DNA of 64,000 nt from Candidatus Nezhaarchaeales archaeon (GTDB taxonomy: Archaea > Thermoproteota > Methanomethylicia > Nezhaarchaeales > WYZ-LMO8): assembly GCA_038887515.1 (NCBI GenBank), contig JAWAKK010000001.1:390205-454204 (forward strand), in the 5' to 3' direction. Shown here in pieces: positions 1 to 16,511 of the stretch. Made by a program: the position numbers and the translations under genes. Numbering within the stretch: position 1 is the first letter of the stretch; the number at the start of each line of letters is the position of its first letter. Under the pieces are notes generated by a model. The model was not told the DNA's origin, searched no databases, and saw only the letters and a list, made by a program, of their open reading frames with translations.

Positions 1-1
1 C

Positions 2-208
2 AACTTAAAGCCGAGCATGAGGACTAGAGCTGCTCTAATAATCACCCACTTAGGGTACATCTTGAATTACGTTAAGGCTGATAGAGCCCACGTGCTCTTC
101 AATGGCAAGATAGCTTGCTCTGGAAAACCTAACGAGATACTGAAGCAGATAATGGAGCACGGATTTGAGAGGTGCCATGAATGCCTTCAGGAACAAGGAG
201 TCAAATAG
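2..208 (+). CDS. sufC: Fe-S cluster assembly ATPase SufC, C-terminal end (gene begins upstream of window)
   Basis: Frame is open from nt 2. Translation '...[47 protein letters not shown]' matches the SufC C-terminus. It overlaps the next gene in an ATGA-type junction. Confidence 0.7.
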
Positions 209-1401
209 AGCAATTAAAGAAGAAGGCTGAAGAAACTTTAACCAAACCCCCTGCTTTCGGGCCAGACTTAGACCTCTCCAAGTACAGGTATGAAGTCGAG
301 AAGCCGAAAGACTGGCTCACAGAAGATCTTATAGAAAGAGCTGAGACCGTTGGAATCGACTTACGCGAGAGGGAGAGATCAGGAACCTACCTACAGCTTG
401 ACCACTACTCAATAATCGAAAAGGCTACAGCAGGCGGCGTAGAAGTCATGAGCATAAGCAAGGCACTTGAAAGTTACGACTGGCTCCTCGACTACTACTG
501 GAAGGCACTAAGCGTCGACATGGACAAGTTCACAGCACTAGCAGAAGTTAAGAGAACTGAGGGTTACTTCATAAGGGCTAAAAAGGGGGTTAAGATAGAC
601 CTCCCAATACAAGCATGCTTATACTTGAAGACTCCAAGGATAGCTCAGAACGTTCACAACATAATAATCGTAGAAGAAGGAGCTGAGCTTCACGTAATAA
701 CTGGTTGCGTTACACCAAAGAAGGCTGAAGGGCTCCACGTAGGAGTTTCAGAGTTCTACGTTAAGAAGGGCGGTAAGCTGACCTTCACTATGATTCACGG
801 ATGGACTGAAGAAGTTGACGTAAGGCCGAGAACAGGTGTGATACTTGAAGATGATGCCTCTTACACCTCAATTTACGTAAACTTAAACCCTGTAAGGACG
901 TTTCAGATGATGCCTAAAGTGTACTTGGAGGGCAGGAATGCGAGGTGCTACTTAGCCTCAATAATAGCAGCCTCAAAGAGCTCCTATTTTGATGTAGGTG
1001 GAGCTACTTATTTAAGAGCCGAGAACACGAAGGCAGAGATAGTCTCAAAGACTGTGGCCAAAGATGAAGCTTACGTTGCTGCTCGGGGCTTCATCGTCGG
1101 CGAGAGGGATGGAGTTAAAGGACATTTAGAGTGTAGAGGGATGCTCCTTTCACCTAAATCAGTGATACTAGCTATTCCAGAACTTGAAGCTAGAGCTAGG
1201 GATGTAGAGTTATCACACGAAGCTGCTGTTGGAAAGATAGCGGAGGAGGAGATATACTACCTTATGGCTAGGGGCTTCAGTGAGGAAGAGGCAACCTCAA
1301 TAATAATAAGAGGCTTCATGAACGTGGATGTGAAAGGCTTACCGCCAGCACTTGCACTACAAATTAAGAAGGCCTTGGACATTAGCGCAAAGAGTCTCTA
1401 G
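181..1401 (+). CDS. sufB: SufB/SufD-family Fe-S cluster assembly protein (406 aa)
   Basis: Directly follows sufC. The C-terminal '[22 protein letters not shown]' is typical of the SufBD beta-helix family. Its length fits the short archaeal SufB/D. Confidence 0.8.
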
Positions 1402-2029
1402 ACATTTTCCTCCCCTCTATCATGGCCTGTGCGAGAAGAGTGTACGCCATCTTGGCAGCTCTCTCAGGCATATAGCAATTGGGAACAAGCCCCTTACCTA
1501 GTATTTCAAGTGCTTGCTCAAACTCTTGCATTCTAACGCCCAAAGGAAGAGTCCAAGCCACAATTATCGGCTTTCCATATCGCCTGCTAGATTCAACGAT
1601 TGCCCTCGAAATGTTGATGGGCGAAGGTGCATGGATTATTGGTGGTGAGATTATCATGTCTATATTAGGGTCTCGGCACATTATTTCAAGAGCCTCTCTA
1701 TACATGTCTATATTTTCAAGAATAGAACCCGTAGTATCTACAGGGTTCGTAACTGAAGCTATTGGTGGTAGAATTGCTTTCAACTTCTCAATGCTCTCCT
1801 TAGTCAGTGAGGGGACTTTAAGGCCATACCTTTCACAAGCTATGACAGCAGGTCCTCCTAGAACCGATATTATTCCAACCCTGTTGCCCTTTGGTCTTAA
1901 GGAGCAGGCAAGGGTCATGGAGAGCTCGTAGAGCTCCTCGAAACTTTCAGCCTGATCTTCAAAGGCCCCTCTGCAATATAGTGTCCGAGGAGGTTCTCGA
2001 TTTTCACTAGACGTTCCATTGACTTGCCC
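1382..2029 (-). pseudogene. C-terminal fragment of an NDP-forming acyl-CoA synthetase (succinyl-CoA-ligase-like flavodoxin domain); N-terminal ~300 codons absent
   Basis: The 178-aa ORF '...GKPIIVAWTLPLG...AQAMIEGRK' resembles only the C-terminal domain of ADP-forming acetyl-CoA synthetase alpha. The frame is open upstream to a stop at 2030-2032 with no further ATG. It is followed by about 300 nt of AT-rich non-coding DNA. Confidence 0.45.
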
Positions 2030-2335
2030 TCAAATGTAATCATCGAGACTTATATATTAAGGATATCCAAAGCCTTGAAAATTAATTTGATGACATAAGA
2101 ACGTTGTAAGCTCAAGAAGCGCTAAGCTCTTCTTTGGGACGTCGAGGCTCCGCATCGTAATAGCTTCTCAAGATAGCATCAATATAGTTGATGACAATTT
2201 ATGAAATGGATAGTCAAATGAATTCGATGTGGCATTTTGATGCTTAAAGGAAAGAGGAGTTGAAGCTTTAAGTGATTTGCGCATCAAGCTTCATTTAGAA
2301 GAAATTTTTAAACTTCCTTCGATTAGCCGCTCATC

Positions 2336-3523
2336 GTGTGGTGGCTAAGCTTCGTCCTTCACGAAGCAGGGTTTAACCTGCTGTTGATATTGCTGCCACT
2401 CTACGTGGTCTCCATTGGTGGATCGCTCACTGATGTAGGCATTATGTGTATGATAGGGCAGCTCGTAGCCATTCCAGCTTCAATGTTTTGGGGCTACATC
2501 TGCGATAAAGCGAGGAGTTACAAGCCCTTCATCATCTTATCCTTCTCATCCCTCTCAATAGCTATATACTCCTTAGTAGTGGTAACTAAAGTAAGTCATC
2601 TGATCTTCCTTTATGCTATATTATCAATATTTCATTCAGCTCACGGTCCTCCACGAAATGTGCTGATAGCAGAACTACACACATATGAAGAATGGAAAAG
2701 GAGCTTTGCAGTATTTGGAGGGTTCGCGGAGATCGGGCGGCTTATAGGATTGCTCATGGGCGCCTACATTTCATTTAGCGGGGCAAGTACCATCTCTCTG
2801 ATATCCTTATGTGGTAGCCTACACATAGCTGCCCTCCTCTTATCCATCATCCTTATTAGAGATCCCATTTTGATTCTAGAGCGCCGTTTAGTATACATAA
2901 AGAGGATGGTGGACTTAGTAGATAGAGGGACTTATGCTTTCTGTAAAGCTCTCGATGGGTTCTCTAGAGTTTGTAACCTTAAGGAGGTGAATGTAAAAGC
3001 TTTTTATGCTGGATTAACCTTCTTCCAAGCAGCATCAACCATGCTCTTCACTCCATTGCCTATATTTCTCTCACGTGAACTAGCCCTCCAACAAGGCCTA
3101 GTCTTCACTATATATACCTTAAACTCCTTGGGTGTTGTTCTAGGTTACTTACACCTAATTTATCGATCTAGCGAAAATGTTGAGAAGACCTCTTTGCTTA
3201 AAGTCGTGCTACTAAGAAGTGTAACGGTCTTCTTAATGTTCATTGCACTATCATCGACCTTTAATGTAGTGATAATTACAGCGTTGCTAACCCTGCTAGG
3301 CTATCTCTATGCGCTATTCTACGTCTATGTGTTGACTATTTCTATGGAGCTTTTACCTCCTAAGAAAGTGGGGTTAATTGACGCCATAATAAACCTGGGC
3401 TCGGTTTATGGAGCCTTTATTGGACAGCTTATAGCCGATAAGGTGGGCTTTAACTACGTGTTCCTATTGAGTGGGCTAACATTCTTCGCTTCATTCATAG
3501 CGTTTAAAGTCTTCAATAGATAG
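2336..3523 (+). CDS. MFS-type transporter, paralog A (GTG start)
   Basis: About 12 predicted TM helices. MFS loop motif 'GYICDKARSYK' lies between TM2 and TM3. It is about 80% identical to the ORF at 33824..35011. Confidence 0.6.
   Translation: MWWLSFVLHEAGFNLLLILLPLYVVSIGGSLTDVGIMCMIGQLVAIPASMFWGYICDKARSYKPFIILSFSSLSIAIYSLVVVTKVSHLIFLYAILSIFHSAHGPPRNVLIAELHTYEEWKRSFAVFGGFAEIGRLIGLLMGAYISFSGASTISLISLCGSLHIAALLLSIILIRDPILILERRLVYIKRMVDLVDRGTYAFCKALDGFSRVCNLKEVNVKAFYAGLTFFQAASTMLFTPLPIFLSRELALQQGLVFTIYTLNSLGVVLGYLHLIYRSSENVEKTSLLKVVLLRSVTVFLMFIALSSTFNVVIITALLTLLGYLYALFYVYVLTISMELLPPKKVGLIDAIINLGSVYGAFIGQLIADKVGFNYVFLLSGLTFFASFIAFKVFNR
2704..2786. repeat. 83-nt tract perfectly identical to 34193..34275 inside otherwise ~78%-identical paralogs
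   Basis: Found by direct comparison of the two MFS copies. Identity drops to about 75-80% immediately on both flanks. Confidence 0.8.
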
Positions 3524-3650
3524 TTGTTTGACCATAAAGCTACTAGCCTAGAAATATGTGTCTTTGATGTAAAATGCTGCTTTAAGAGAAGACCTGAGCA
3601 ACTCTAACTGTTCACACGGCAGTAAGCAACATTAATTAATGTACGCTTCC

Positions 3651-4751
3651 TCAAACTTCAAAATGCTTCGCAAGCACTTTAACTCTTGAGGCTTTAATTT
3701 GCACAAAAACCGTGGCTCCGGGTTTAACATTGAAATCGTCAAGATAATCCGGGTTAATCTCAGCTTTTAGGTTAACATTGCCTAAATCGACGTCAACCTT
3801 AACAACTGATCCTTCCATATACATGCCTTTTACCCTTCCCACCAAGATGTTGCATTGGCAGCCTTTCCACTTCGGCTTGACGATCTCCCTCGTAGGCGAT
3901 AAAATGATATCTTGAGGTTTTATGACAACTATAACATCTTTAACTTTTTCTGGGAAGTTTCCACAACCCTCAGCATTCAAGATAGTGTCTCCAACATCGA
4001 CAGAGACGCGTCCATCCTCGATTGAAATGACATGTCCATCAAGGACATTATAGCCTAAAAATTCTGCGATGAATTTTGAACTTGGATTTTCAAATATAGT
4101 CTCAATAGAGCCTACCTGCTCAATCCTTCCATCACTCATTATGGCTATTTTATCACCGACTGCTCTCGCTTCCAACAGGTCGTGAGTTGTATGTATGACT
4201 GAAGTGCCAAATTGACGGAAGACCTCCTTAAGCATACCGCAGATTTCTCTTCTAAAAACTTCTCTTGTAGGTGGGTCCAGCGCTGAGCACGGTTCATCTA
4301 ACAATAAAACGTCAGGTTTAGCTGCTAAGGCTCTCGCAATAGCCACCCTCTGTTTCTGCCCAGAACTCAGGGACTCGACACTTTTATTCATTAAATTCTC
4401 AATTTGAAGTAGGCGTACGATCCTTTGAAGATCATTTAATCCCATGCCCTTCGATTTCTTAAATGCAAGCTGAATATTCCGCTCAACAGTCATATTCGGG
4501 AACAACACGTAATCAGCTGGTACATACCCGACTCTCCTCTTTTCTGGTGGAAGATCCGTGACGTCAATTCCGTTAATTATTATCTTTCCGGAATCGATCT
4601 TCTGAAGACCGGCTATGCATTCAAGCAGCGTCGTCTTTCCACATCCATTGGGGCCCATTAACGTAAGAATTGTGCCGCACTGAACTTCAAAGCTAATATC
4701 TGTTAAGAAGAAGGAGCCTCGTTGTGCATGCAAATTTAAAACAGTTATCAT
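3651..4751 (-). CDS. ABC transporter ATP-binding protein with C-terminal TOBE/Mop domain (ModC/WtpC-like)
   Basis: Walker A 'GPNGCGKTT' and signature 'LSSGQKQRVAIARAL' are present. A roughly 130-aa C-terminal extension is typical of molybdate/tungstate/sulfate importer ATPases. Confidence 0.75.
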   Translation of the reverse strand: MITVLNLHAQRGSFFLTDISFEVQCGTILTLMGPNGCGKTTLLECIAGLQKIDSGKIIINGIDVTDLPPEKRRVGYVPADYVLFPNMTVERNIQLAFKKSKGMGLNDLQRIVRLLQIENLMNKSVESLSSGQKQRVAIARALAAKPDVLLLDEPCSALDPPTREVFRREICGMLKEVFRQFGTSVIHTTHDLLEARAVGDKIAIMSDGRIEQVGSIETIFENPSSKFIAEFLGYNVLDGHVISIEDGRVSVDVGDTILNAEGCGNFPEKVKDVIVVIKPQDIILSPTREIVKPKWKGCQCNILVGRVKGMYMEGSVVKVDVDLGNVNLKAEINPDYLDDFNVKPGATVFVQIKASRVKVLAKHFEV

Positions 4752-5554
4752 ATAGCGAGCCCCCCGTACAAGAGCTTTCTAGTAGCTATTAATGCTAGGC
4801 AAGCTGTGAAGAGGAGAATAAATGACAAAGCAGCCACATTTCCTAAGTCTGCTGCAACGAGATTAAGATAGAGCGCGATGGGTAAGGTTTCAGTCTTGAA
4901 TCTAGTAGCACCGGCAAGCATGAGTGTTGCGCCAAACTCTCCCAACGCTTTAGCCCAAGATATGAGGGCTGCTCCAAGAATGCATCGCTTAGCAGCTGGC
5001 AACGTTACATATAGGAAAGTCTCCAACTCCGTGTATCCAAATGTCCGAGCAACTCTTTCATAGCGAGCAGGTACTCCATCGAAAGTCTCTTTTAGGAGCT
5101 TTATTGTTAAAGCGCTTATTACAGCTAATTGGGCTACGATGATCCCCGGGACTTCGAAGACAATCCTTACAACACTTTCATTTATGAACATACCTAGAGG
5201 ATTTCTCGCGAAGAAAATAAGTAGCATAACTCCTAGTGCGACTGGAGGAACTGCTATAGGTACGTCTAGGAAGCCTTCAATCACGGTTTTCCCCCGAAAT
5301 TCGAGACGAGATAGAGCGTAAGCTACTGGAATGCCGATGACTAGAGAGATTAAAGTTGAACATGTAGCGGTAAAGATTGAGAGGGAGAGAGCGAACCTTA
5401 CTTCATCAGAGATAAAAGCATATGCGAGCTGCCAAGGATCAACAAAGATTGCTGGCGATGTAAAGACGCATAAGAAGAATATCAAAATGAGTATTAAGAA
5501 GGAGAACACTACGACTCTGAACACATTGGGCTTCATGCTACCCAAGCTCCTCAA
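4748..5554 (-). CDS. ABC transporter permease (ModB/WtpB-like)
   Basis: Six-TM permease with an EAA-like loop. It overlaps the ATPase by 4 nt. Confidence 0.75.
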   Translation of the reverse strand: MRSLGSMKPNVFRVVVFSFLILILIFFLCVFTSPAIFVDPWQLAYAFISDEVRFALSLSIFTATCSTLISLVIGIPVAYALSRLEFRGKTVIEGFLDVPIAVPPVALGVMLLIFFARNPLGMFINESVVRIVFEVPGIIVAQLAVISALTIKLLKETFDGVPARYERVARTFGYTELETFLYVTLPAAKRCILGAALISWAKALGEFGATLMLAGATRFKTETLPIALYLNLVAADLGNVAALSFILLFTACLALIATRKLLYGGLAI

Positions 5555-6401
5555 TTATTGCATTTGGAGCATAGGCTCTAGCTTCCTCTAATGTCGAGAA
5601 GTATCCATACTTTGCCCAAACGCCATGCATGTCCTGTGAAGTTAAGAAGTCTAGAAACTTCTCGGCAAGAACTTTATTTTTACTATATGTTGACACTGCT
5701 CCAGCTATGTAGCCTATCTTCAGGATCTTATTCGGTTCGATCCACACGATGTCAGTCTTCTCGGGGCTCCAATAATGGAAAACGTGCCACCCGATTACGG
5801 CATCCACAGTACCAATGTAGATTAGCTGAGCCGTCGCCTCGCAGCTAGCCGCGTAAACAGCAATATTCTTACTAACAGCTTCCCAAAGCCCATTTATCTC
5901 TAAAAGCTCCTTAGCGTAAAGACCGACACAAACAGATTTAGGATCAGCTATTCCAACATGGATTCCAGGTCTTGCAAGATCCTCAATTGACGTGATGTTC
6001 TTCGGATTTCCTTTCTGAACAATGATTGCTGGAACTAGATAAGCAAGTATTTTTGCTGGGTGCTCAGTAAGGTTAACAACATTCCTCTCATTTGCCAAAA
6101 TAAGATATTCTGGCGAACCCGGAATATAGACGTCGCCTGTTCTTGCAATTTCCATAGACGACAGCAAACTCCCTGAGCCACCAAGCTTCAACTCAACTTT
6201 AATGCCATACTTCGATTCAAAAATGCTAGCAGCTTCTCTATAAACGGGAGCGGCGGCTGCACCAGCGAATACGACGATCGATTGATCTGCTGGGTTGCTA
6301 CCATAGAACGTATAAATGACTACTCCAAGTGCAACTAATATGAGACCAATCAGAGAAGATATGTTCAAAAGTCTCAAATGAGACCTGCTTGGCTTCATCA
6401 A
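5538..6401 (-). CDS. Molybdate/tungstate-type periplasmic substrate-binding protein (ModA/WtpA family)
   Basis: N-terminal signal anchor. 'GGSGSLLSSMEIARTGDVYIPGS' is similar to the ModA 'GSSG...AD.F.SA' region. It is the first gene of the three-gene transporter operon. Confidence 0.65.
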   Translation of the reverse strand: MMKPSRSHLRLLNISSLIGLILVALGVVIYTFYGSNPADQSIVVFAGAAAAPVYREAASIFESKYGIKVELKLGGSGSLLSSMEIARTGDVYIPGSPEYLILANERNVVNLTEHPAKILAYLVPAIIVQKGNPKNITSIEDLARPGIHVGIADPKSVCVGLYAKELLEINGLWEAVSKNIAVYAASCEATAQLIYIGTVDAVIGWHVFHYWSPEKTDIVWIEPNKILKIGYIAGAVSTYSKNKVLAEKFLDFLTSQDMHGVWAKYGYFSTLEEARAYAPNAIIEELG

Positions 6402-6598
6402 TTATCGTCCTTTTATTGCTGGGAAGAGATGGTTATATCTTCAACCTTATAAGACCTACTGAAAACTAGTTTTAACTTTCTATAGTTAACAATTTAATTT
6501 AAATTCATAGTAATGGCGTAGAGCTTATGGTTTCTGGAGTAATGTTTATAAGCAAATTCATATCATTAGTGTTACGAACTGATAGTTAAGGTGTTACC

Positions 6599-7252
6599 AT
6601 GCATATACCAGATGGTTTTCTAGATTTTACCACAGCTACCTTAACATATCTCGTAACCATCGGCTATGGCTATGTAGCTTGGAGGAGGTTCAAGGTCTCC
6701 TTTGCTCCTGAAAGAGTATCGCTTCTAGTTATCCTCTCAGTAGCAATATTTGTGGCTCAAATGTTGAATTGGCCTTTACCTGGAGGTACTAGCCTGCACT
6801 TTGTTGGTGGAGCATTAGCTGGAATGCTGCTTGGCCCTTTACTTGGCTTCATATCGTTAGCGCTAGTTGTTGGCGTTCAATGCATCATCTTCCATGACGG
6901 TGGAGTAACTACGCTTGGAGCCAACCTCTTAAACATGGCGATAATCGCGGTACTAGTGGGTTACGCAACATTCAAGATTACCATCAAGCTCATAGGAAAT
7001 AAGCGAAGCTCAAGAGCTATAGGTGCATTTATAGGTGGATGGCTGAGTATCGTGCTAGCTGGTCTTGCGTGTGGTCTTGAGATAGGTTTGTCGCCGGCAT
7101 TTGGCTTTTACATTGACGTCACAGTCCCAGTAATGGTTGGGTGGCATGCGATATTAGGTGTAGTAGAGGGTGTGATAACTTCCCTCGTGGTTGACTTTAT
7201 CTACACGAGATTACCTATGGCGACCTATAAGGGTGAGGGGGTAAAAGCATGA
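6599..7252 (+). CDS. cbiM: Cobalt ECF transporter substrate-capture component CbiM
   Basis: N-terminus 'MHIPDGFL' is the characteristic CbiM start. It is a multi-TM protein. Confidence 0.8.
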   Translation: MHIPDGFLDFTTATLTYLVTIGYGYVAWRRFKVSFAPERVSLLVILSVAIFVAQMLNWPLPGGTSLHFVGGALAGMLLGPLLGFISLALVVGVQCIIFHDGGVTTLGANLLNMAIIAVLVGYATFKITIKLIGNKRSSRAIGAFIGGWLSIVLAGLACGLEIGLSPAFGFYIDVTVPVMVGWHAILGVVEGVITSLVVDFIYTRLPMATYKGEGVKA

Positions 7253-7560
7253 GCAACCTCATCAAGAGCAAGAAGGCTTGGACAACAATAATAGTACTAC
7301 TAATTCTAAGCCCAATATTTGGTGTAGTACTAGCTGATATCGTCGGCTATCATGAGCCTCTCGATCTAGCAGCTGAAGCTATAGGTCTTCGTGATGTGAG
7401 CGAGGAAATAACTTGGACTCCATTCTTCGACTACAACGTTCCTGGCTTGCCAGCTGAGATCGGCTACATCATTAGTGGAGCTATAGGGGTCATTGCTATC
7501 ACGATGATAGGTTATGGAATCTTAAAATTGGCTGAGAAGAGAGTGAGGAGAAAGGTGTAA
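7249..7560 (+). CDS. cbiN: Cobalt transport protein CbiN
   Basis: 103-aa two-TM protein in 4-nt overlap with cbiM. This matches the canonical cbiMN arrangement. Confidence 0.7.
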   Translation: MSNLIKSKKAWTTIIVLLILSPIFGVVLADIVGYHEPLDLAAEAIGLRDVSEEITWTPFFDYNVPGLPAEIGYIISGAIGVIAITMIGYGILKLAEKRVRRKV

Positions 7561-7563
7561 TCT

Positions 7564-8355
7564 TTGTCTAAGAGCCTCTTATCATCGTTTTTAAACGGCA
7601 TAGCCGATGTGTTGGAGGTCTTCTCGTTTGAGAGGAAAGAAGATGTAAAGCTCTTTGACGACAGATCTATTTCTATTTCACTCTTAACGCTAGCTATCGC
7701 TGTCTCTTTCTCTAAGACCGTATATTCACCTCTAATAGTGCTCTTACTAATAGCCATACTAGCAAGGCTATTCAAAGTAGATGTTAGATACACGCTGAAA
7801 GTAGCAAGCGTAGTGGCTATCTTTGTTATGGGAGTAACGCTCCCAATGGCTTTGTACCAAGCATACATCAGCTACGATGTTAAAGGAGGCTTACTCGCAA
7901 GCTTAATGCCAATAGCGAGCAGCGTCACCATCCCACTAATATTAAGAGCTGTTGCAGCAGCTACTGCCGTAACGCTTATGGTTCAATGCTTGGGGTTAAC
8001 AAGATTAATGAAGGTGCTTAGAAGTCTAAGGTTTCCTCCAAAGCTCCTCTTCGTATTAACGTTATACATTAGGTACATACCCATAATGCTAAGACGGTTA
8101 GTAAGATTATTTTCAGCTCGTGAAGCGCGTTTACTGAGCAAAAGTAAATCGAAGAATTCTTGGTTTATGCTGTCAACGGTAGCAGGGAGCTTACTCATAA
8201 TTGGGTTTGAAAAAGCTCTTAGATTACAAATGGCTCTTAAAGCCAGGGGACTCCACTATGATTTGATCCCAACATATTCAGGAAAAATTAGCTTACAGGA
8301 TTCAATATTCATGGCATTAATGCTTGGATTAGCTTTCATGTTGGTGTTGATGTGA
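7564..8355 (+). CDS. cbiQ: ECF transporter transmembrane (T) component CbiQ (TTG start)
   Basis: Polytopic protein positioned between cbiN and cbiO. Confidence 0.7.
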   Translation: MSKSLLSSFLNGIADVLEVFSFERKEDVKLFDDRSISISLLTLAIAVSFSKTVYSPLIVLLLIAILARLFKVDVRYTLKVASVVAIFVMGVTLPMALYQAYISYDVKGGLLASLMPIASSVTIPLILRAVAAATAVTLMVQCLGLTRLMKVLRSLRFPPKLLFVLTLYIRYIPIMLRRLVRLFSAREARLLSKSKSKNSWFMLSTVAGSLLIIGFEKALRLQMALKARGLHYDLIPTYSGKISLQDSIFMALMLGLAFMLVLM

Positions 8356-8356
8356 A

Positions 8357-9289
8357 ATGAGTGAAAATGAGCCCCTAAAGCCACTAATAGAGCTTGAGAA
8401 TGTGTCATACACATATCCTGATGGAACTTGCGCACTTAAGAAGATTAGCGTTAAAATACCAGAGAAGAGCATTATTGCGATAACAGGGGCTAATGGATCC
8501 GGTAAGAGCACCTTGCTTCTGATAATGGCCGGCTTATTAGATCCTCAAGAGGGCTGCGTTAGGTTTAGAGGCATAGACATGAAGAAGCTTGGACACAAAG
8601 TAAGGCGCGAAATAGGAGTAGTCTTTCAAGACCCCGATGATCAGCTCTTCGCACCAACAGTCTACGACGACATAGCCTTTGGCTTAAGGCTTCTGAAGTT
8701 AAGTGAGAAAGAAGTTAGAGCGCGCGTCTATGAGATAGCGCGCGAGCTGGGCATCGAGAACTTGCTGAATAGACCTCCACATAGGCTTAGTGGTGGCGAG
8801 AAGCGTAGAGTAGCTCTCGCCACAACTCTGATCTTAAATCCATCAGTACTACTCCTAGACGAACCCTTCTCAGACTTAACTCCTTACGCAGTCGAGTACT
8901 TAATGGACTTTATCATGAAGCTTAGAGGCTCTGGGAGGACCATAGTGTTCACGAGTCACGATATAGACATCGTCGCTGAGTTATCCGATTACGTCTACGT
9001 CTTAGCCAAAGGTCAGTTAATAGCTCAAGGAAAGCCTAACGAGGTTCTGTGCAACGATGAGCTGTTGAGCAAAGCCGAGATGAGACCTCCAACAGTGACG
9101 ATCATATATAGAGAGCTTATGGGCTATAGTGATAGATGTCCCATTAAGATGTCAGAACTTTTATCAATACTAAGAAGTAGAATCGTAGCCCCTCATTCGC
9201 ATGATGGTGTGGCATGCAATAAGTTTGCCTTAAGTGAGGAGAAAATCAGCTATCTAACAAAATCACCACAATATGATGGGAGTTTCTGA
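8357..9289 (+). CDS. cbiO: ECF transporter ATPase CbiO
   Basis: Walker A 'GANGSGKST', signature 'LSGGEKRRVALA', and the Q and H loops are present. Confidence 0.8.
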   Translation: MSENEPLKPLIELENVSYTYPDGTCALKKISVKIPEKSIIAITGANGSGKSTLLLIMAGLLDPQEGCVRFRGIDMKKLGHKVRREIGVVFQDPDDQLFAPTVYDDIAFGLRLLKLSEKEVRARVYEIARELGIENLLNRPPHRLSGGEKRRVALATTLILNPSVLLLDEPFSDLTPYAVEYLMDFIMKLRGSGRTIVFTSHDIDIVAELSDYVYVLAKGQLIAQGKPNEVLCNDELLSKAEMRPPTVTIIYRELMGYSDRCPIKMSELLSILRSRIVAPHSHDGVACNKFALSEEKISYLTKSPQYDGSF

Positions 9290-9514: not shown

Positions 9515-9841
9515 ATGAAGGCTATCATTATAATCGGTGATGGAATGGCTGATCGACCGTTAGAGGAGCTCAACTTCATGACTCCATTGGAAGCTACTAG
9601 AGTAAACAACATGAACTGGCTTGCCTCAAATGGCATTTCAGGGCTTCTCTGTTCAACAGTTCCTGAAAGTGATGTAGCGAACTTAGCCGTCTTCGGCTAT
9701 GATCCCTCTAGCGTTTACACTGGTAGAGGGGGGTTCGAAGCTGTTGGAGCTGGAGTCCAACTTTTGGATGAAGATTTAGCTTTTAGATGCGACTTCGCCA
9801 CTATTCTTACAGCTCTATCAAGGAGCTCTACGAGGTTGTAG
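9515..9841 (+). pseudogene. apgM: N-terminal ~100-codon remnant of archaeal cofactor-independent phosphoglycerate mutase (ApgM)
   Basis: 'MKAIIIIGDGMADRP...TPLE...GISGLL.TVPE...SDVANLAVFGYDP...YTGRGGFEAVGAGV...AFRCDF' matches the ApgM N-terminus. The ORF stops after 108 aa, whereas the full protein is about 410 aa. Confidence 0.55.
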
Positions 9842-10182
9842 AACGTGTCCCTAAATATCCCGCATATCGTGACCACTACATCTATTCTAGGTCTACCGAG
9901 CTCTGAGAGAGGTATTACTTCGAGGTCCCTAATGTACAGGCCTCTCCAAACAGGTTTTACACCTAGAAGGTGGAATATTGCTGCTAGCGTCTCTCCACCG
10001 GTCTTCATGGTCTCAAAGGCCCATAAAACAACGCCAACGGCCTTCGGGTACCTCCCATTCTTCTGGTAGAACCTCTTAAGATATTCTTCAGCTATCTTCT
10101 TACCTCTCTCCTCCTTCTTGCAATCTTCACTACGCCTACTATCAAAAATGGTATCGCAATGGCGAACCAAACTGCTACCCAT
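9715..10182 (-). pseudogene. cobN: Internal fragment of cobaltochelatase CobN / Mg-chelatase H family
   Basis: 'YPKAVGVVLWAFETMKTGGETLAAIFHLLGVKPVW...LEVIPLSELGRPRIDVVVTICGIFRDTF' matches a conserved CobN block. The ORF is 155 aa, whereas CobN is over 1000 aa. It overlaps the apgM remnant. Confidence 0.55.
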
Positions 10183-10220
10183 AATGGAGAAAGAAAACCA
10201 TCCATTATATGCATAGGAAT

Positions 10221-10237
10221 CACTAGCTGGATAGATT
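10221..10237. promoter_or_regulatory. Perfect 7-bp inverted repeat CTGGATA-gat-TATCCAG in the intergenic region upstream of cbiC
   Basis: Read directly from the sequence. Candidate operator or hairpin. Confidence 0.3.
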
Positions 10238-10445
10238 ATCCAGCCAACTCATATAAAACTTACCATCAACGTAATTACTGTTGGGAAGAGATGTCTTAAA
10301 GCAAGATGTTGGCTTCTCTGTTTATGAAGTCGTGACCGCACTTAGCCTATATTAAGGTTAGATGGTCAACTTACTTAGCCATTTAAGGACGAGGTCTAGA
10401 GTGAAGTTTAAATTGTTGGTTAGCTTCACCTATCCTTAAGGCTGG

Positions 10446-11129
10446 ATGGGTTATCCAACCATGGATCAACATCACGATCCTGATGACATTCAAGCTTCGA
10501 GGGCACTTCTATCCATGAGCATCAATAAGGTTAGAGAGCTTATTGGAGATTACTTAAGAAGTTTGCCAGCAAGCCATGCGAGAATCGTTGAGCGAGTCGT
10601 GCATGCTACTGCGGATCCAGAGTTTGCTAAACTAGTAGTTATAAGTAATGGAGCTGTCGAAAGTGGGATCAAAGCCATAAGGGCTGGCGCAAAGGTCGTG
10701 ACCGACGTTAAGATGGTTAAAGCCGGGTTGAGAGAAGTAGGGCTTAGAAGGTTTGGAGGAAGAGTTGAGTGCTACGTGGATGATGAAAGAGCCATTAAGG
10801 TAGCTCGAGAAGAAGGAATAACTAGAACTGCAGCGGCAATGCGAGTCGCCGTCGAGATGGGGTTAAACGGAGCGATAGTCCTGATCGGGATATCTCCCAG
10901 TGCAACACTTGAGCTGGTTTCAGCTATTAAGAGAGGAGAAGCAAAGCCAGCTCTGATAGTTGCAACACCAGTTGGTTTCATAGGGGCTAGAGAGTCTAAA
11001 GAGGAGGTCATGAAGCTACCAATCCCCTACATAGTCGTAACAGGTTCAAAGGGTGGTAGCCCCGTAGCTGTAGCAATATTCAATGCGCTATTAACGTTAG
11101 CAGAAGAGGGTATGGAGGGCTTCACTTGA
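10446..11129 (+). CDS. cbiC: Cobalt-precorrin-8 methylmutase CbiC
   Basis: 'HATADPEFAKLVVISNGAVESGIKAIRAGAKVVTDVKMVKAGL' matches the CbiC/CobH core. Its size is about 210-230 aa. Confidence 0.75.
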   Translation: MGYPTMDQHHDPDDIQASRALLSMSINKVRELIGDYLRSLPASHARIVERVVHATADPEFAKLVVISNGAVESGIKAIRAGAKVVTDVKMVKAGLREVGLRRFGGRVECYVDDERAIKVAREEGITRTAAAMRVAVEMGLNGAIVLIGISPSATLELVSAIKRGEAKPALIVATPVGFIGARESKEEVMKLPIPYIVVTGSKGGSPVAVAIFNALLTLAEEGMEGFT

Positions 11130-12214
11130 AGTTTCTAAAGTACGGGATTTCGACAGGTGCATGTGCAGCTGCTGCAGCTAAAGCTGCTGCTCTAGCCTTG
11201 ATGGGGGTCAAGACTGATAAAGTCAGCATTCCAACACCTATTGGACTACGACTTGAAGTACCTGTTGAAGGGTGTCGAAGAATCGACGATGAGAGGGCAG
11301 TGGCTTGGGTGGTAAAGGATCCTGGAGATGACGTTGACGTAACTAGGGGGCTTAAAATACATGCTACTGTTAGGCTTACTAGAGATGGAGAGATCGTCAT
11401 AAAAGGTGGAGAAGGCATCGGAGTAGTCACCAAGCCTGGATTACCAGTCCCCGTAGGAGAGGCGGCTATAAACCCCGTGCCCAGAATGATGATCAAACAA
11501 GCTCTTCAAGAAGTACTGCCTCCAGGCATTGGCGCCGAGGTCTTGATAGAGGTCCCCGGCGGTGATGAGGTAGCAAAGAGGACCCTCAACCCAAAGCTTG
11601 GCATCATTGGAGGAATATCGATTCTAGGCACCACCGGAATCGTGAAACCACACTCTACTTCAGCATATAAGCGTTCGCTCTCAGTTCAAGTAGACGTAGC
11701 TTTGGCTAATGGGCATGATAGAATAGTCATAGTTCCTGGGAACGTTGGTGCGAGGGTTGCCAGACAGCTCCTCAAAATCCCAGATGAGGCTATAGTGCAA
11801 GCAGGCGACTTCATCGGCTACATGCTTCGTAAAGCAGTAGAGAAGGGGGTGAAAGAAATCCTGCTAGTTGGACATGCAGGTAAGCTTGTGAAGATCGCAG
11901 CAGGCATCTTCAATACTCATCATAAAGTTGCTGATGCTAGAATGGAGGTCATTGCAGCATATGCTGCTGCAGCAGGAGCTGATAATCATCTAGTTAAGAG
12001 AATCTTAGAAGCTAACACAACGGAGGAGGCTATTAAGCTCCTTCAACTTCATGGAATCCTTAAGCAAACCTTCAACATGATTGCTGATAGAGCCAGGTCT
12101 AGGTGCATTGACCTAATCGATGGAAGGGCAAACGTAGGCATCATAATAGTGTCGCTTGAAGGTGAGGTTTTAGGAGTTAGTGGCGTTGATAGGTGGTTGT
12201 CAGCACATGGCTAA
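11126..12214 (+). CDS. cbiD: Cobalt-precorrin-5B (C1)-methyltransferase CbiD
   Basis: 'GISTGACAAAAAKAAALAL' is the CbiD signature. Length is 362 aa. Confidence 0.85.
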   Translation: MKFLKYGISTGACAAAAAKAAALALMGVKTDKVSIPTPIGLRLEVPVEGCRRIDDERAVAWVVKDPGDDVDVTRGLKIHATVRLTRDGEIVIKGGEGIGVVTKPGLPVPVGEAAINPVPRMMIKQALQEVLPPGIGAEVLIEVPGGDEVAKRTLNPKLGIIGGISILGTTGIVKPHSTSAYKRSLSVQVDVALANGHDRIVIVPGNVGARVARQLLKIPDEAIVQAGDFIGYMLRKAVEKGVKEILLVGHAGKLVKIAAGIFNTHHKVADARMEVIAAYAAAAGADNHLVKRILEANTTEEAIKLLQLHGILKQTFNMIADRARSRCIDLIDGRANVGIIIVSLEGEVLGVSGVDRWLSAHG

Positions 12215-12887
12215 GATCTACATTGTCGGCGCTGGTCCAGGAGATCCTGACTACGTGACTCCAATTGCCAGGAAGATGGTTAGGCAGGCGGAGTTGGTAA
12301 TAGGCTCAGAGAGAGCAGTTAAGCTCTTCAATAACGACGTAAGAGGAGAGGTCATCATTCTCGATTCGAGGAATTTTAGGGAGGTAATGGTTTACGCTGT
12401 AGAACGAGCAAGAAGTGGAGCAAACGTAGTAATGGTATCCACAGGAGATCCTGGCTTCGCTGGTCTACTTGGAACATTCATAAAGAGTTTTGGAACAAAA
12501 TTGGACGTGGAGGTTGACGTCATCCCTGGAGTAAGCGTCATTCAAGTATGCGCTGCTAAACTCAAGATCTGTTGGGATGATGCTGTCCTAATTAGTCTTC
12601 ATGAGGGCGCAACCGAAGAAAAGAGGAGGAGACTGGCTGGAGCTGTTAAGTCGGGTAAGACGGTAATCCTCTTGCCAAACACTAGGTCTTTCACTGTCAG
12701 GGATGTCGTGAAGTACCTCTTGAGCGAGGGAGTAGACGAGGAGACAATCGCGTACGTGTGCGAGGACTTAACTCTTAGTAGTGAGAGGATCGTTAAAGCC
12801 ACTTTAAGAGAATTAATGTCCTACGAGGGTAGCTCTCTATGCGTTATGGTGATCACTCCAAGGAGGGGTAATTGTGTGGAGCTATAA
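12207..12887 (+). CDS. cbiE: Cobalt-precorrin-7 (C5)-methyltransferase CbiE
   Basis: 'MAKIYIVGAGPGDPDYVT' is a tetrapyrrole-methylase N-terminus. The likely start is the ATG at 12207, within the ORF that is open from 12180. Confidence 0.75.
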   Translation: MAKIYIVGAGPGDPDYVTPIARKMVRQAELVIGSERAVKLFNNDVRGEVIILDSRNFREVMVYAVERARSGANVVMVSTGDPGFAGLLGTFIKSFGTKLDVEVDVIPGVSVIQVCAAKLKICWDDAVLISLHEGATEEKRRRLAGAVKSGKTVILLPNTRSFTVRDVVKYLLSEGVDEETIAYVCEDLTLSSERIVKATLRELMSYEGSSLCVMVITPRRGNCVEL

Positions 12888-13467
12888 AACACCTGGAATA
12901 CCGGATGAGCTCTTCATAACTAGCGATAAGGTTCCTGGACCAACCAAAGAAGAGGTAAGAGTTGTGACCATATCGAAGGCAAGGCTTAAGGAGGGATGTC
13001 GCGTTGCTGATGTTGGTTGTGGTGTTGGAAGCATAACTGTCGAAGCTGCATTAATTGTTGGCTCTACGGGGAAAGTATACGCTATTGATAAAGATGAAGA
13101 GGCTATTAGAATCACGAAGCTGAACGTGGCTAAATTTGGCGTTCAAGATCGCGTTCAGGTAATACTTGGGAAAGCTTCTAAGGTTCTTGAGCTAATCCCG
13201 GAGGTCGATAGCATAATAATAGGAGGTGGAAGGCCCTTATCCAAGGTCCTTGAAGCTGCTGTTAAGAGACTGAAGTTTGGTGGACGCATCGTAATCAATG
13301 CGGTCACTGTTGAAACGGCGAGTAGAGCTATCAAGATGCTCAAGAAGATGAAGTTCGGTGAGCTGGAAGTAGTTAACGTATCTATCGCTAAAGGCAAGCT
13401 TACCAACGCGGGAACTATCATGCTGGCTAGGAACCCTGTTTTCGTAATATCTGCGTCAAAATCTTGA
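12874..13467 (+). CDS. cbiT: Cobalt-precorrin-6B (C15)-methyltransferase (decarboxylating) CbiT (GTG start)
   Basis: 'VADVGCGVGSITVEAA...VYAIDKDEEAI' is a class I SAM-binding motif. Position after cbiE matches the cbiET pairing. Confidence 0.75.
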   Translation: MWSYKTPGIPDELFITSDKVPGPTKEEVRVVTISKARLKEGCRVADVGCGVGSITVEAALIVGSTGKVYAIDKDEEAIRITKLNVAKFGVQDRVQVILGKASKVLELIPEVDSIIIGGGRPLSKVLEAAVKRLKFGGRIVINAVTVETASRAIKMLKKMKFGELEVVNVSIAKGKLTNAGTIMLARNPVFVISASKS

Positions 13468-13477
13468 GGGAGCTATA

Positions 13478-13996
13478 TTGCTAGGCAAGTTATATGGTGT
13501 GGGTGTTGGTCCAGGCGACCCTGACTTACTGACTTTGAAGGCTGTAAAGGTTTTGGGTGATGTGGACGTAATATTCGCTCCAAAACCCAGCACTGACAAG
13601 CCTAGCTTAGCACTGACGATTGTTAAGCCAATGCTTAGAGACCATCAGGAAGTGGTAGAACTTGTCTACCCGATGACTAAGGAAAGAGAGGTCTTAGAAG
13701 CTTGTTGGGAAAAGAATGCTGACCTGATAATCTCAAAGCTCATGACAGGAAAGAACGCAGCCTTCATAACGTTAGGAGACCCCATGCTCTACAGCACCTT
13801 CATATATACTTGCAGGAAGATTGTAGCTAAAGCTCCTGACGTGGAGATAGAGATAGTCCCAGGAGTTACATCGATAACGGAATGTGCTGCAATCTCAAGG
13901 ACGTCCATAGCAGAAGGAGATGAAGTAGTGGTGATAATCCCTTCACTGAGTGATCGCGAAAAAATTAGAGGTCTAGCGAAGAAGCTACATCAATAA
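13478..13996 (+). CDS. cbiL: Cobalt-factor II C20-methyltransferase CbiL, C-terminally truncated (172 aa vs ~220-240 expected)
   Basis: 'MLGKLYGVGVGPGDPDLLTLKA' is the CbiL/CobI N-terminus. The protein ends shortly after '...VVVIIPSLSD' and lacks the last roughly 60 residues. Confidence 0.65.
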   Translation: MLGKLYGVGVGPGDPDLLTLKAVKVLGDVDVIFAPKPSTDKPSLALTIVKPMLRDHQEVVELVYPMTKEREVLEACWEKNADLIISKLMTGKNAAFITLGDPMLYSTFIYTCRKIVAKAPDVEIEIVPGVTSITECAAISRTSIAEGDEVVVIIPSLSDREKIRGLAKKLHQ

Positions 13997-14061
13997 TCAT
14001 AAGGGGCTTCATGGAGATAGACGTTAAAGGCTTACCGCCACTATTAGCTTCTCTCAGATAA
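13975..14061 (+). pseudogene. Relic of the 3' end of a SufB/SufD-family gene
   Basis: An alternate frame reads '[27 protein letters not shown]'. The intact sufB at 1290-1401 reads '[30 protein letters not shown]'. The frame is closed by a TAG just upstream at 13966-13968. Confidence 0.5.
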
Positions 14062-14111
14062 AGAGGGCATTAGATGTAGCGACCAAAGGCGTCCAGACAA
14101 CCTCCTTTCAC

Positions 14112-14135
14112 TTTCAGCTAAAAGCTAAAAGCTAA
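14112..14135. repeat. Tandem heptamer (GCTAAAA)x3
   Basis: 'agctaaaagctaaaagctaaaag'. Confidence 0.6.
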
Positions 14136-14249
14136 AAGAATTTAATCAATAATTTATAGAAAGTCCACATACAAAACTGAAAAATTAAAACATAGTTGAA
14201 AAGATGAATGAAGTACGTCTTGGGGTGTTAGTGAAGTACATGCCATTGC

Positions 14250-15179
14250 TTGCTGGTGTCGTGTATGAGGTTAAGGTATCGCCTGCAGAAGAGTCGGGAA
14301 GCGCTCATAATCTCTGTTTCGCTAAGCTCTCTAGGCGCAATTGTTGAAGGTGTGGCACTAACATTTTATGGGAGCATTATTCTCGCCACTGACTTTTTTC
14401 ACTGGGTCTTGGATACAATAGTTGAGGTTATGTTCCTATTTTCGATTTATTACGCTAGTAGAGTAGGAAAGAGGTTTCCTTGGAGTATAATAGCGCTTGA
14501 GTTCTTGACAAGCATAATAGTGATGATCGTTGTCTTAGGCTTCTATGGCTTCTACTTCTTCAATTACGTTAACAGCCTCATGCAACAGTATAGTGTATCA
14601 ACGGTATCGCCGCTGGCTGCAATAGCTACAGCTATTGGAGGAATAATTACTTTAACAGTGTTCGTGCTTCAAAGAAGGAACTACAGGAAATATTCGTTAG
14701 AGATCTTAAGAATTGATAGTAACCATGCACTGATAGATACCGCATCGTCTTTTTTCGCTACCTTTGGAATAATCCTTACAGCTTGGTTGGGAGACCCAAC
14801 GATAGAGATTTTTGCTACACTAATCATCATGATGTTCATAATTCATAGCATCTTTGAGATATTTAAAGATACCTTTAAGGTATTATCGGGAAGCAATTTA
14901 GATCACGAGATAACGGATAGAGTGAGAAGAGCCATCGAAGAGAGATTGTTCGATGCTAAATTAAAGAACGTGGAGGCTAGGAAGGTCGGATCGTTTTACA
15001 TAGTGTCTACCGATATATTTTTGGATCCAAACACCACCATTTCAAAAGCACATTCTTTACGCAGGAAGATCGTAAATTTAGTTAAAGAAGTCTCCGACCT
15101 CATTTACCATGTCGACGTTAAGTTCTATCCCTCGCTCGAATACAGGAGAGTTTTGAAAAAGCAAAAGAGGAGGAGTTAA
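14250..15179 (+). CDS. Cation diffusion facilitator (CDF) family metal efflux protein
   Basis: Six TM helices carry H..D pairs in TM2 ('FFHWVLDT') and TM5 ('NHALIDT'). The C-terminal cytoplasmic domain is '...VGSFYIVSTDIFLDP'. The true start may be an internal Met. Confidence 0.65.
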   Translation: MLVSCMRLRYRLQKSREALIISVSLSSLGAIVEGVALTFYGSIILATDFFHWVLDTIVEVMFLFSIYYASRVGKRFPWSIIALEFLTSIIVMIVVLGFYGFYFFNYVNSLMQQYSVSTVSPLAAIATAIGGIITLTVFVLQRRNYRKYSLEILRIDSNHALIDTASSFFATFGIILTAWLGDPTIEIFATLIIMMFIIHSIFEIFKDTFKVLSGSNLDHEITDRVRRAIEERLFDAKLKNVEARKVGSFYIVSTDIFLDPNTTISKAHSLRRKIVNLVKEVSDLIYHVDVKFYPSLEYRRVLKKQKRRS

Positions 15180-15260
15180 AGGTTTAAGTTTAAACCCCAA
15201 TTATACAGACTAAGGTATGTGGACGCTGTTGCGATGAAACCATTTGCGACTATTGATTGG

Positions 15261-16511
15261 CTACTCCTCTCTTCGCATAGGCTCTTTGATCAACGTTCCA
15301 ATCATTACCATTAACGGTATGCTAAGGGTCATTGCCAAGTAGAAAGGCGCCTTGGGCGATACATGTTCGTAGAGAGAGCCTCCTGCAAGATTTCCAAGAG
15401 CCATAAATATGACGCTAAGGAAGTTGGAAAGGGCATTAATCTTTCCTCTCTCGTCCCTAGGTGTGAGATCTGCGATAAGTGAGCTCGCCCCTGCGTACAT
15501 CATTACTTGGCCAGCTCCTACAAGTATCAAGGAGATTACTACTAAGAACGTGCTTCCATTTACGAAGAACCATATAGAGAAAGTAAAGAGTACGTAGGCT
15601 ACTATCAAGGATATCTTTCTGCTGGCCTTGTCGATTAACTTTCCTATCGGTATAGAGAAGACGACTGTAGTAACCGGTACAATTGTTAAGAGAAGCCCCC
15701 ATAGAGTCTCGTTTATCAATAATTCTCTCACCGCGTATACCGGGAGAAATGGTGTTATTGCGGAGAAACCCGATTGTCCGATAGCAACCGCTAAAACGAG
15801 GTATAAGAGAGACCTCGACGCTTTCTTGTACGCTGTTAAACATTCCCTAACCGCAATCGGGTAGTTCCTCCAGAGATTCGATACGCTAGGCTTCTCGGAA
15901 CCCCTAAAAGTCTCCTTTAAGTAGAACAATCTGAGGAAAGCCGCGGCGAGAAAGAAGGTGACCACTAACCCGTAACCCATCCTCATCCCCATCATCAACC
16001 CAAAGGTTCCACATAAATAAGCGGCGATTATAGGGCCTGGAGTCGTCGAGGCGTTACCTATTAGCGAAACTATACCGAAGCCCATGCCCCTCTTTTCGGG
16101 CGGTAGAGAGTCGGCCAGCATAGCCATGAGGGCTGGCTGATACATAGAGTTAAATACGGCCATTAGTACACTGCCCACTAAGATGAAGTGCCAGGAGGGG
16201 GCTAGGGCGAAGAATAGGTAACTTAAAGCCACCCCGAATGTCATGGTACATATTATCCACTTTCTCCCAAACTTATCGGCAATATAGCCTCCGGGAAACT
16301 GCATTGAAGCTAAAGCAATGAAGTGACAAAACCCTATTAGCCCTACTATAGTCTCGCTAGCCCCTAGACCGATTACGTATAGAGCATAGTAGACGGCTGG
16401 TATCTCCATCGCAAAATCCATGAGTAGCCAACTTACAACCAAGACGGCATAGTTTCCTTTAACGAAAGCTAGGTCTTCTCTGATATGCTGAATAAACCGT
16501 GCAACCATCAA
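15261..16511 (-). CDS. MFS transporter (416 aa)
   Basis: Twelve-TM topology with 'GGYIADKFGRKW' as the MFS motif A. Confidence 0.65.
   Translation of the reverse strand: MMVARFIQHIREDLAFVKGNYAVLVVSWLLMDFAMEIPAVYYALYVIGLGASETIVGLIGFCHFIALASMQFPGGYIADKFGRKWIICTMTFGVALSYLFFALAPSWHFILVGSVLMAVFNSMYQPALMAMLADSLPPEKRGMGFGIVSLIGNASTTPGPIIAAYLCGTFGLMMGMRMGYGLVVTFFLAAAFLRLFYLKETFRGSEKPSVSNLWRNYPIAVRECLTAYKKASRSLLYLVLAVAIGQSGFSAITPFLPVYAVRELLINETLWGLLLTIVPVTTVVFSIPIGKLIDKASRKISLIVAYVLFTFSIWFFVNGSTFLVVISLILVGAGQVMMYAGASSLIADLTPRDERGKINALSNFLSVIFMALGNLAGGSLYEHVSPKAPFYLAMTLSIPLMVMIGTLIKEPMRREE

Follow-up and report, generated by a model that had tools for sequence, protein, structure and literature searches.

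How did a gene of corrinoid synthesis come to run into the tail of an iron–sulphur cluster gene in a hot-spring archaeon? The question is raised by a stretch of 64,000 nucleotides (nt), hereafter the window (contig JAWAKK010000001.1, positions 390,205 to 454,204, of assembly GCA_038887515.1), from a metagenome-assembled genome (MAG) of the Nezhaarchaeales, a group described in PMC6783470, in which a shortened cbiL gene abuts sequence resembling the 3′ end of sufB. The first-pass annotation of the window had explained this join by one homology-driven deletion that removed the end of cbiL and almost all of a second gene of the SufB/SufD family, possibly sufD. The comparison with related loci leads to another account, which we consider probable: a patchwork of about 15.7 kb, drawn from co-occurring Nezhaarchaeota, would have replaced the native sufCB region, and the cbiL/sufB join would be the right-hand scar of this replacement. 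The alignments show directly the segment affinities and the breakpoints with their microhomologies, and also that the sufB remnant is collinear with the sufB–CDF region of a relative.

The genome of the window (G_w) was compared with the loci L001–L010 (the G_1 lineage), whose CbiL protein, P0001, is encoded by over 20 contigs belonging to about ten MAGs; with several loci carrying suf genes, among them L022, a Logan contig of 5.3 kb from run SRR32459161 that encodes the SufB protein P0159; and with L026, a contig of the Joint Genome Institute (JGI). Among the recovered loci, and judged by both flanks, the L022 lineage is the closest relative of the backbone (82–85% nucleotide identity). Three further Logan contigs, L011, L014 and L028, derive from run SRR21619495 and span the junctions discussed below; L011 is identical to window 1–2733 and reaches 9.8 kb further left. 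The SufB C-terminus was compared across 120 SufB homologues, and the in-genome gene searches covered the 64-kb window.

The truncated cbiL and the sufB tail beside it

The 3′ truncation of cbiL, already recognised in the first-pass annotation, is borne out by its family models and by its closest homologue. Residues 1–168 of the 172-aa product are 100% identical to P0001 (242 aa), a protein of Nezhaarchaeota MAGs and the best protein match, and the last four codons (KLHQ, followed by the stop) are sufB-derived DNA read in another frame, so that 74 genuine C-terminal residues are absent rather than the 60 or so estimated at first. The open reading frame (ORF) scores 189.4 bits against the family model TIGR01467 (cobI_cbiL; cut-off 163.25) and covers positions 1–161 of 230, compared with 1–230 in P0001; the match to the Pfam family TP_methylase (PF00590; E-value 1.3e-42) takes in profile positions 1–158 of 212. 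CbiL proteins are not uniformly this short, since almost all homologues among the matches listed have about 240–260 aa, and the best-matching solved structure, the precorrin-2 methyltransferase 2qbu, has 232 aa. The complete two-domain tetrapyrrole-methylase fold (~230–250 aa) is lacking in the 172-aa protein, which would be inactive because roughly half of its C-terminal domain is gone.

In the G_1 lineage the cob cluster comprises genes for a Mg-chelatase, cobN, cbiQ, two small ORFs and cbiM on the minus strand, and cbiC, cbiD, cbiE, cbiT and cbiL on the plus strand, followed by a methylase gene, cbiG, a second methylase gene, hemB, hemC, a third methylase gene, hemD and further tetrapyrrole genes. 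The similarity of the window to this cluster ends at 13981, after ...GGTCTAGCGAAG. When the G_1 proteins were searched by tblastn, no counterpart of CbiG, HemB, HemC or HemD was found in the window, the other G_1 methylases matched only cbiE and the truncated cbiL (cbiL′) there (26–34% identity), and the missing CbiL C-terminus was found nowhere in it. The pathway context in which CbiL acts (cbiH, cbiG, cbiF and others) is likewise absent from the window and, because no homologue of these three genes accompanies a protein that has lost about half of its C-terminal domain, the cbiL fragment is very probably a dead passenger. A full-length CbiL, P0002, 76% identical, comes from SRR32459162, a sister sample of that of L022 and not the run of the window; it is no evidence for or against a second cbiL in G_w.

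The neighbouring cbiC, cbiD, cbiE and cbiT are still intact. Over cbiC–cbiL′ the ratio of non-synonymous to synonymous change relative to G_1 (pN/pS) is about 0.14 (15 non-synonymous and 34 synonymous changes); most of the divergence therefore dates from a time when selection still acted on these genes, compared with which the truncation is recent. Gene by gene, pN is far below pS in cbiC, cbiD, cbiT and cbiL′, and about equal to pS in cbiE (12207–12887; 9 non-synonymous and 3 synonymous changes), which may be under relaxed constraint, the counts being small. The cbiM gene of the window (6599–7252) was also set against the G_1 cbiM as a gauge of genome-wide divergence and proved uninformative, the two being paralogues at 25% identity.

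Past the join, the sufB-like C-terminal peptide that had been noticed in a different frame at the cbiL stop is indeed present, and its resemblance to the sufB gene at the left end of the window (the resident sufB) extends to the nucleotides, as had been claimed: positions 13978–14099 and 1285–1404 are identical at 92 of 117 aligned bases, with a local score of 75 that lies about 24 standard deviations above the scores obtained after shuffling one of the two sequences (18.7 ± 2.4, maximum 30). The relic does not stop at 14061, where it had been taken to end. The TCTCTC run at 14050–14055 contains a 2-nt insertion that shifts the frame, and past it the sufB reading resumes (QIKRALDVATKG...) up to the former stop position at 14094–14096, where TAG is now CAG. 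Homology to the C-terminal end of the SufB/SufD family (PF01458, SUFBD_core) is apparent in both protein and DNA, and the relic has no intact ORF with a SUFBD core domain. The weak resemblance beyond 14096 is intergenic sequence of the L022 type; a continuation of the relic into the 3′ end of a gene for ADP-forming acyl-CoA synthetase (ACS), on the pattern of the sufB/ACS overlap at 1382–1401, was considered and dropped, since in L022 sufB is followed by a cation diffusion facilitator (CDF) gene and not by an ACS gene.

The relic is closer to the sufB of L022 (87% nucleotide identity) than to the resident sufB (78.6%) or to the genes of L017, L021 and L023 (up to 80%), and the best C-terminus match of its peptide among the SufB homologues is P0159, not the resident SufB. 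Window 13974–16229 is collinear with L022 3096–5327 at 83.6%, from the sufB tail through the intergenic sequence and the CDF gene into a gene of the major facilitator superfamily (MFS), in a contig whose order is IF-2B (minus strand), sufC, sufB (407 aa), CDF (305 aa) and MFS (minus strand). Because of this collinearity, the relic is best regarded as a pseudogene fragment, what is left of the 3′ end of the sufB that once stood before the CDF gene. A copy of the resident sufB (181–1401) is ruled out as its source by the lower identity and by the same collinearity. A remnant of sufD is ruled out as well, since the four related lineages examined (L017/L018/L020, L021, L022 and L023) carry a single SUFBD gene, of 405–407 aa and accompanied by sufC, of which the relic is the syntenic orthologue. 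In the downstream sequence examined of L017/L018/L020, L022 and L023–L025, no second SUFBD gene lies 3′ of sufB, the next gene encoding ACS, CDF or a CDP-OH transferase; the L021 contig stops 150 nt into the ACS gene. The resident SufB protein scores best with the sufB/SmsB models, below their cut-offs.

The proposal that cbiL and sufD were ancestral neighbours, and that one deletion promoted by homology with the upstream sufB truncated both, is therefore extremely improbable. It would account for two remnants that abut at a single junction, and one illegitimate junction does join them; in addition, a deletion may have taken place inside the block once this had been inserted, so that "one deletion" could hold literally for a late stage that followed a larger insertion. 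What does not hold is the simple deletion of an ancestral neighbourhood: no relative examined has sufD after sufB or cbiL adjoining a suf gene, and the gene lost was native sufB, whose remnant still precedes CDF and is less similar to the upstream sufB than to that of L022. Neither does the junction bear out homology between two sufB genes as the driving force, for its only homology is an octamer, TAGCGAAG, that occurs in both the G_1 cbiL and the native-type sufB of L022, and the sufB 12.6 kb upstream is itself the incoming copy, as set out below.

The relic probably survives only because it adjoins the conserved upstream region of the CDF gene. In this region, just past the former sufB stop, the heptamer GCTAAAA stands three times in tandem (14117–14137; twice in L022), and the alignment of the window with L022 contains an invariant ATCAATAATTTATAGAAA at 14145–14162, a putative TATA-type promoter of the CDF gene. 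An ORF of 47 codons (14204–14347) lies upstream of the CDF start and overlaps it; its conservation in L022 is at about the general nucleotide level. In the protein collection the CDF protein has a single other close relative, P0122 (66% identical); in L015, where CDF is 66% identical, ACS on the minus strand adjoins CDF on the plus strand and sufB is absent from that place, which makes this locus less informative than L022. A contig scan with the CDF protein returned only loci of Desulfurococcaceae (43–44% identical), which gave no synteny information, G_w and its close relatives being evidently not among the species representatives scanned. An exact look-up of the MFS protein at 15261–16511 found nothing on record, probably since the called start differs. 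The MFS, DUF5305 and S8 genes to the right of the block are 69–74% identical to those of L017.

The probably imported block and its internal joins

The left border lies about 1.74 kb before the window, within the IF-2B gene, where the affinity of the sequence switches at L011 8077–8086: to the left of this point the informative sites are L022-like in 133 cases versus 33 L017-like, and to the right L022-like in 10 versus 132 L017-like. This border is a homologous (homeologous) crossover within the IF-2B gene. Because of this sharp switch, and because the stretch that holds them (window 1–1955) is 93–98% identical to its counterparts in L017/L021 and 75% to that of L022, the resident sufC and sufB appear to be the imported, xenologous version; G_w would thus keep a working sufCB pair, but a xenologous one. 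As judged from these alignments, a block of ~15.7 kb, which begins about 1.74 kb before the window and ends at 13981, takes the place of about 2.5 kb of L022-type sequence, namely part of IF-2B, sufC and all of sufB but its last ~38 codons. The pieces of the block and the backbone features discussed here are listed in Table 1.

Table 1. Coordinates of the imported pieces, the junction and the native features in the window
Feature	Position	Strand	Affinity or remark
sufC′ (window edge), intact sufB (181–1401), ACS′ (1382–1955, minus)	1–1955		93% L017, 96–98% L021, 75% L022
Imported segment: 5′ stub of neighbouring gene, MFS-like gene, ABC transporter, cbiM-N-Q-O	1947–9173		L026-like lineage
Imported MFS-like gene	2336–3523		in L026-like segment; paralogue of 33824–35011
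Gene-conversion tract (83 nt) in imported MFS-like gene	2704–2786	+	100% identical to native 34192–34274; 77% to L026
Molybdate/tungstate-type ABC transporter	3651–6401	−	in L026-like segment
cbiM-N-Q-O (ECF transporter)	6599–9289		in L026-like segment; cbiO 3′ end replaced from 9173
cbiO	8357–9289		junction at 9173; 310 aa vs 283 aa in L026
apgM′ stub, N-terminal ~95 codons of cofactor-independent phosphoglycerate mutase	9515–9841	+	ends at cobN′ junction near 9794
Internal cobN fragment (318 nt)	9794–10111	−	98.7% to G_1
Imported cob-cluster fragment: cbiM′ (minus), cbiC, cbiD, cbiE, cbiT, cbiL′	10103–13981	+	98.3–98.4% nt to G_1
Truncated cbiL (precorrin-2/cobalt-factor-II C20-methyltransferase)	13478–13996	+	172 codons: 168 genuine, then KLHQ and stop
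Junction J4, 8-nt microhomology TAGCGAAG	13974–13981		G_1 similarity ends 13981; L022 sufB similarity starts 13974
Native sufB relic, last ~38 codons	13974–14096	+	87% nt to L022 sufB tail
Native sufB–CDF intergenic region	14097–14264	+	collinear with L022
CDF gene, native	14265–15179	+	93% aa to L022 CDF after sufB
MFS transporter gene, native backbone	15261–16511	−	collinear with L022; 68.8% nt to L017 lineage
Native MFS-like gene	33824–35011	+	paralogue of 2336–3523 (76% nt); region syntenic with L026 flanks

In L017, L018 and L020 the gene order is sufC, sufB, the ACS alpha-subunit gene (489 aa, minus strand, overlapping the end of sufB), the ACS beta-subunit gene, MFS (minus strand), DUF5305 (minus strand) and an S8 peptidase. 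In the window the ACS alpha gene is a 3′ remnant with about 195 of the 489 codons left, the longest ORF being of 178 aa (1382–1918); its stop and the stop region of sufB overlap in the same way as in L017, and its 5′ part and the beta-subunit gene are gone. The remnant gives way to the next segment at J1 (1947–1955), where the two sides overlap by TCAGC(C/T)TGA.

This next segment corresponds to L026 9611–16836 at 94% overall, with an identity that is itself mosaic: ~99% over 3100–6950, 86–94% to the left and 79–95% to the right of it, or 79–100% per 200-nt interval, a pattern that points to recurrent exchange by homologous recombination between these hot-spring lineages. On either side of the segment, L026 is syntenic (73–78%) with window 26–46 kb, a region that includes the native MFS-like copy, and the segment is therefore a xenologous second copy whose locus lies ~30 kb away on the backbone map. 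At its right end, the similarity of cbiO to L026 is lost 35 nt before the L026 stop and is followed by 116 nt of unrelated sequence, so that the product may be a C-terminally altered ATPase.

The apgM stub has its own upstream region, and its source was found in none of the fetched loci. On the opposite strand to it, a chimeric ORF of 155 aa (9715–10182) is composed of the cbiM′ start, the internal cobN′ piece and apgM antisense. At J3 (10103–10111) a 9-nt microhomology, CCTCTCTCC, joins cobN′ to cbiM′, of which the first ~32–37 codons remain on the minus strand, and the join equals a 4.57-kb deletion relative to the G_1-type cluster. The joins for which both partners are known have microhomologies of 5–9 nt, and cbiL′, cobN′, cbiM′, apgM′ and ACS′ are all truncated mid-gene.

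An integrative mobile element or genomic island was also considered as the vehicle of the block and rejected: the scanned ORFs are transporters, cob genes and fragments, neither the ten block ORFs nor the cob genes scanned have an integrase or transposase domain, no tRNA gene or Rfam hit was found in the 64-kb window, and no repeat is common to the two block borders. For the cbiN-like ORF (about 7249–7560), not scanned separately, the precomputed record lists only weak PDGLE. The GC and skew profiles run across the borders of the block without a change in composition, which is what one would expect if the donors were related.

Reality of the join and assembly of the block

In principle, the contig could be a chimera of co-occurring Nezhaarchaeota genomes produced during assembly or binning, in which case the cbiL/sufB join would exist in no cell. 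The MAG does come from a community with several related lineages, at least three of which are matched by the block, the junction has been met in one run only, and the Logan contigs break at window 2733/2757. Such an artefact is nevertheless very unlikely. Overlaps of 5–9 nt are far below any assembler k-mer and cannot be created by de Bruijn path crossing; both borders and all internal joins are reproduced in an independent Logan assembly of SRR21619495, the two assemblies being identical across every junction; the break at 2733/2757 coincides with an 83-nt exact repeat, where L026 is collinear, and so marks no misjoin; and it would be strange for an artefact to produce six chimeric joins in a row within 16 kb of a 776-kb contig and to leave intact operons between them. 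The repeat is the gene-conversion tract of Table 1. Outside this tract the imported MFS-like copy is 92–100% identical to L026 and 60–83% to the native copy. That the imported copy has native-type bases within the tract requires recombination between the two copies, which argues strongly that both stand in one genome.

For the way in which the foreign DNA entered, we favour homology-facilitated illegitimate recombination (HFIR), the original work on which was reportedly done in Acinetobacter. The donor DNA would have comprised (a) a piece with IF-2B′, sufC, sufB and ACS′, 93–98% identical to L017/L021; (b) the MFS-like gene, the molybdate/tungstate-type ABC transporter and cbiMNQO, 94–99% identical to L026; (c) the apgM stub; and (d) cobN′, cbiM′, cbiC, cbiD, cbiE, cbiT and cbiL′, 98.4% identical to the G_1 MAGs. 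Its left end would have been anchored by the homologous crossover in IF-2B, its right end would have been joined illegitimately, at cbiL codon 168, to the native sufB tail by means of TAGCGAAG, and internal microhomology deletions may have followed integration. Native sufB would thereby have been left as a decaying 3′ stub just before the CDF upstream region, and the intact transporters are plausible as the selected cargo. Both hallmarks of HFIR are seen at the locus, that is, the homologous crossover at one border (the switch at L011 8077–8086) and, at the other, an illegitimate microhomology border (13974–13981) with loss of recipient DNA, the ~2.5 kb of L022-type sequence being absent.

A larger collinear donor segment whittled down by later deletions fits these data equally well. 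A multi-step origin of this kind, without HFIR, is a tentative but real alternative: a large collinear segment of one donor genome would have been acquired, perhaps through chromosomal exchange between cells or through circularisation followed by one crossover in IF-2B, the region would have been transiently duplicated, and microhomology deletions, including the one at 13974–13981, would afterwards have cleared DNA that was redundant or of no use. J3 is demonstrably an internal deletion of the G_1-type cluster at a 9-nt repeat, J1 is the trace expected of a ~30-kb deletion from ACS to the gene upstream of the MFS-like gene in the order of G_w or of an L026-like genome, and no piece has a strand orientation that conflicts with collinearity. 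Nevertheless, each of the pieces (a), (b) and (d) has its best match in a different known lineage, L026 has no cob cluster after cbiO, no donor with the required order is known, and the apgM stub has no placed counterpart. It is rather unlikely that the block was built in one step from several unrelated chromosomal fragments of at least three neighbouring lineages, end-joined by microhomology and held by a single homologous anchor.

Several points weigh against the account of a patchwork that replaced the native sufCB region. The junction comes from a single sequencing run, SRR21619495, assembled twice, with no independent sample; a 30-mer across it had zero matches in JGI metagenomes, and an exact look-up of the 172-aa product returned the same run only. 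L022 is a contig of only 5.3 kb at ~83% identity, so that the label "native" rests on two short flanks, and the match to L026 is itself mosaic, so that the donors may themselves be recombinants. We infer the direction and the order of the events from the end-state, which is compatible with more than one number and order of events and with one donor or several.

Known systems compared and significance

With HFIR, as it is described in PMC3240628 for naturally competent bacteria and E. coli conjugation, the locus shares the homologous anchoring of foreign DNA at one end, an illegitimate microhomology (here of 8 nt) at the other and the replacement of the intervening recipient DNA. It differs in its host, an uncultured archaeon without a known uptake route, in the insert, which is ~15.7 kb long and itself a patchwork with four internal illegitimate joins, and in that the process is deduced here from its end-state. 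The exchange of sufCB at its own locus (93–98% to L017/L021 compared with ~75–84% for the backbone) also resembles in situ xenologous (orthologous) displacement, although this was no clean swap of alleles: the homologous crossover is confined to the left side, the replacement brought in 12 kb of unrelated cargo, and part of the old gene persists as a stub. In the effector/immunity arrays of the Vibrio cholerae type VI secretion system (PMC5361080), incoming DNA likewise displaces the resident genes and leaves a remnant beside a conserved downstream gene; the immunity genes retained there are reportedly intact and useful, whereas the sufB stub, a 3′ piece with a frameshift, has no plausible function of its own. 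Finally, the truncation of cbiL′, cobN′, cbiM′, apgM′ and ACS′ mid-gene at short direct repeats, and a cob remnant without the remaining pathway genes in the window, recall decaying biosynthetic clusters, with the difference that cbiC, cbiD, cbiE and cbiT are intact and that pN/pS is 0.14; the decay is therefore recent, or most of the divergence is older than the truncation.

For annotation, the cbiL ORF of the window is to be called a pseudogene, the adjoining cob genes are no evidence for corrinoid synthesis by this MAG, and the "second suf gene" is a scar and not sufD. The event belongs to a known class, illegitimate recombination accompanied by xenologous displacement, and no new kind of system is involved. 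In summary, the locus offers a well-resolved natural case, at base-pair resolution, of gene flow between co-occurring archaeal lineages, in which a homologous anchor, microhomology joins, a xenologue of an essential Fe–S operon, hitch-hiking metal transporters and later gene conversion are seen together. If the block was assembled in one step, uncultured hot-spring TACK archaea would acquire DNA from the environment or by cell contact and handle it in the manner of HFIR or microhomology-mediated end joining, a transformation-like pathway not described for this group, and essential genes such as sufCB could be swapped as by-products of this process.

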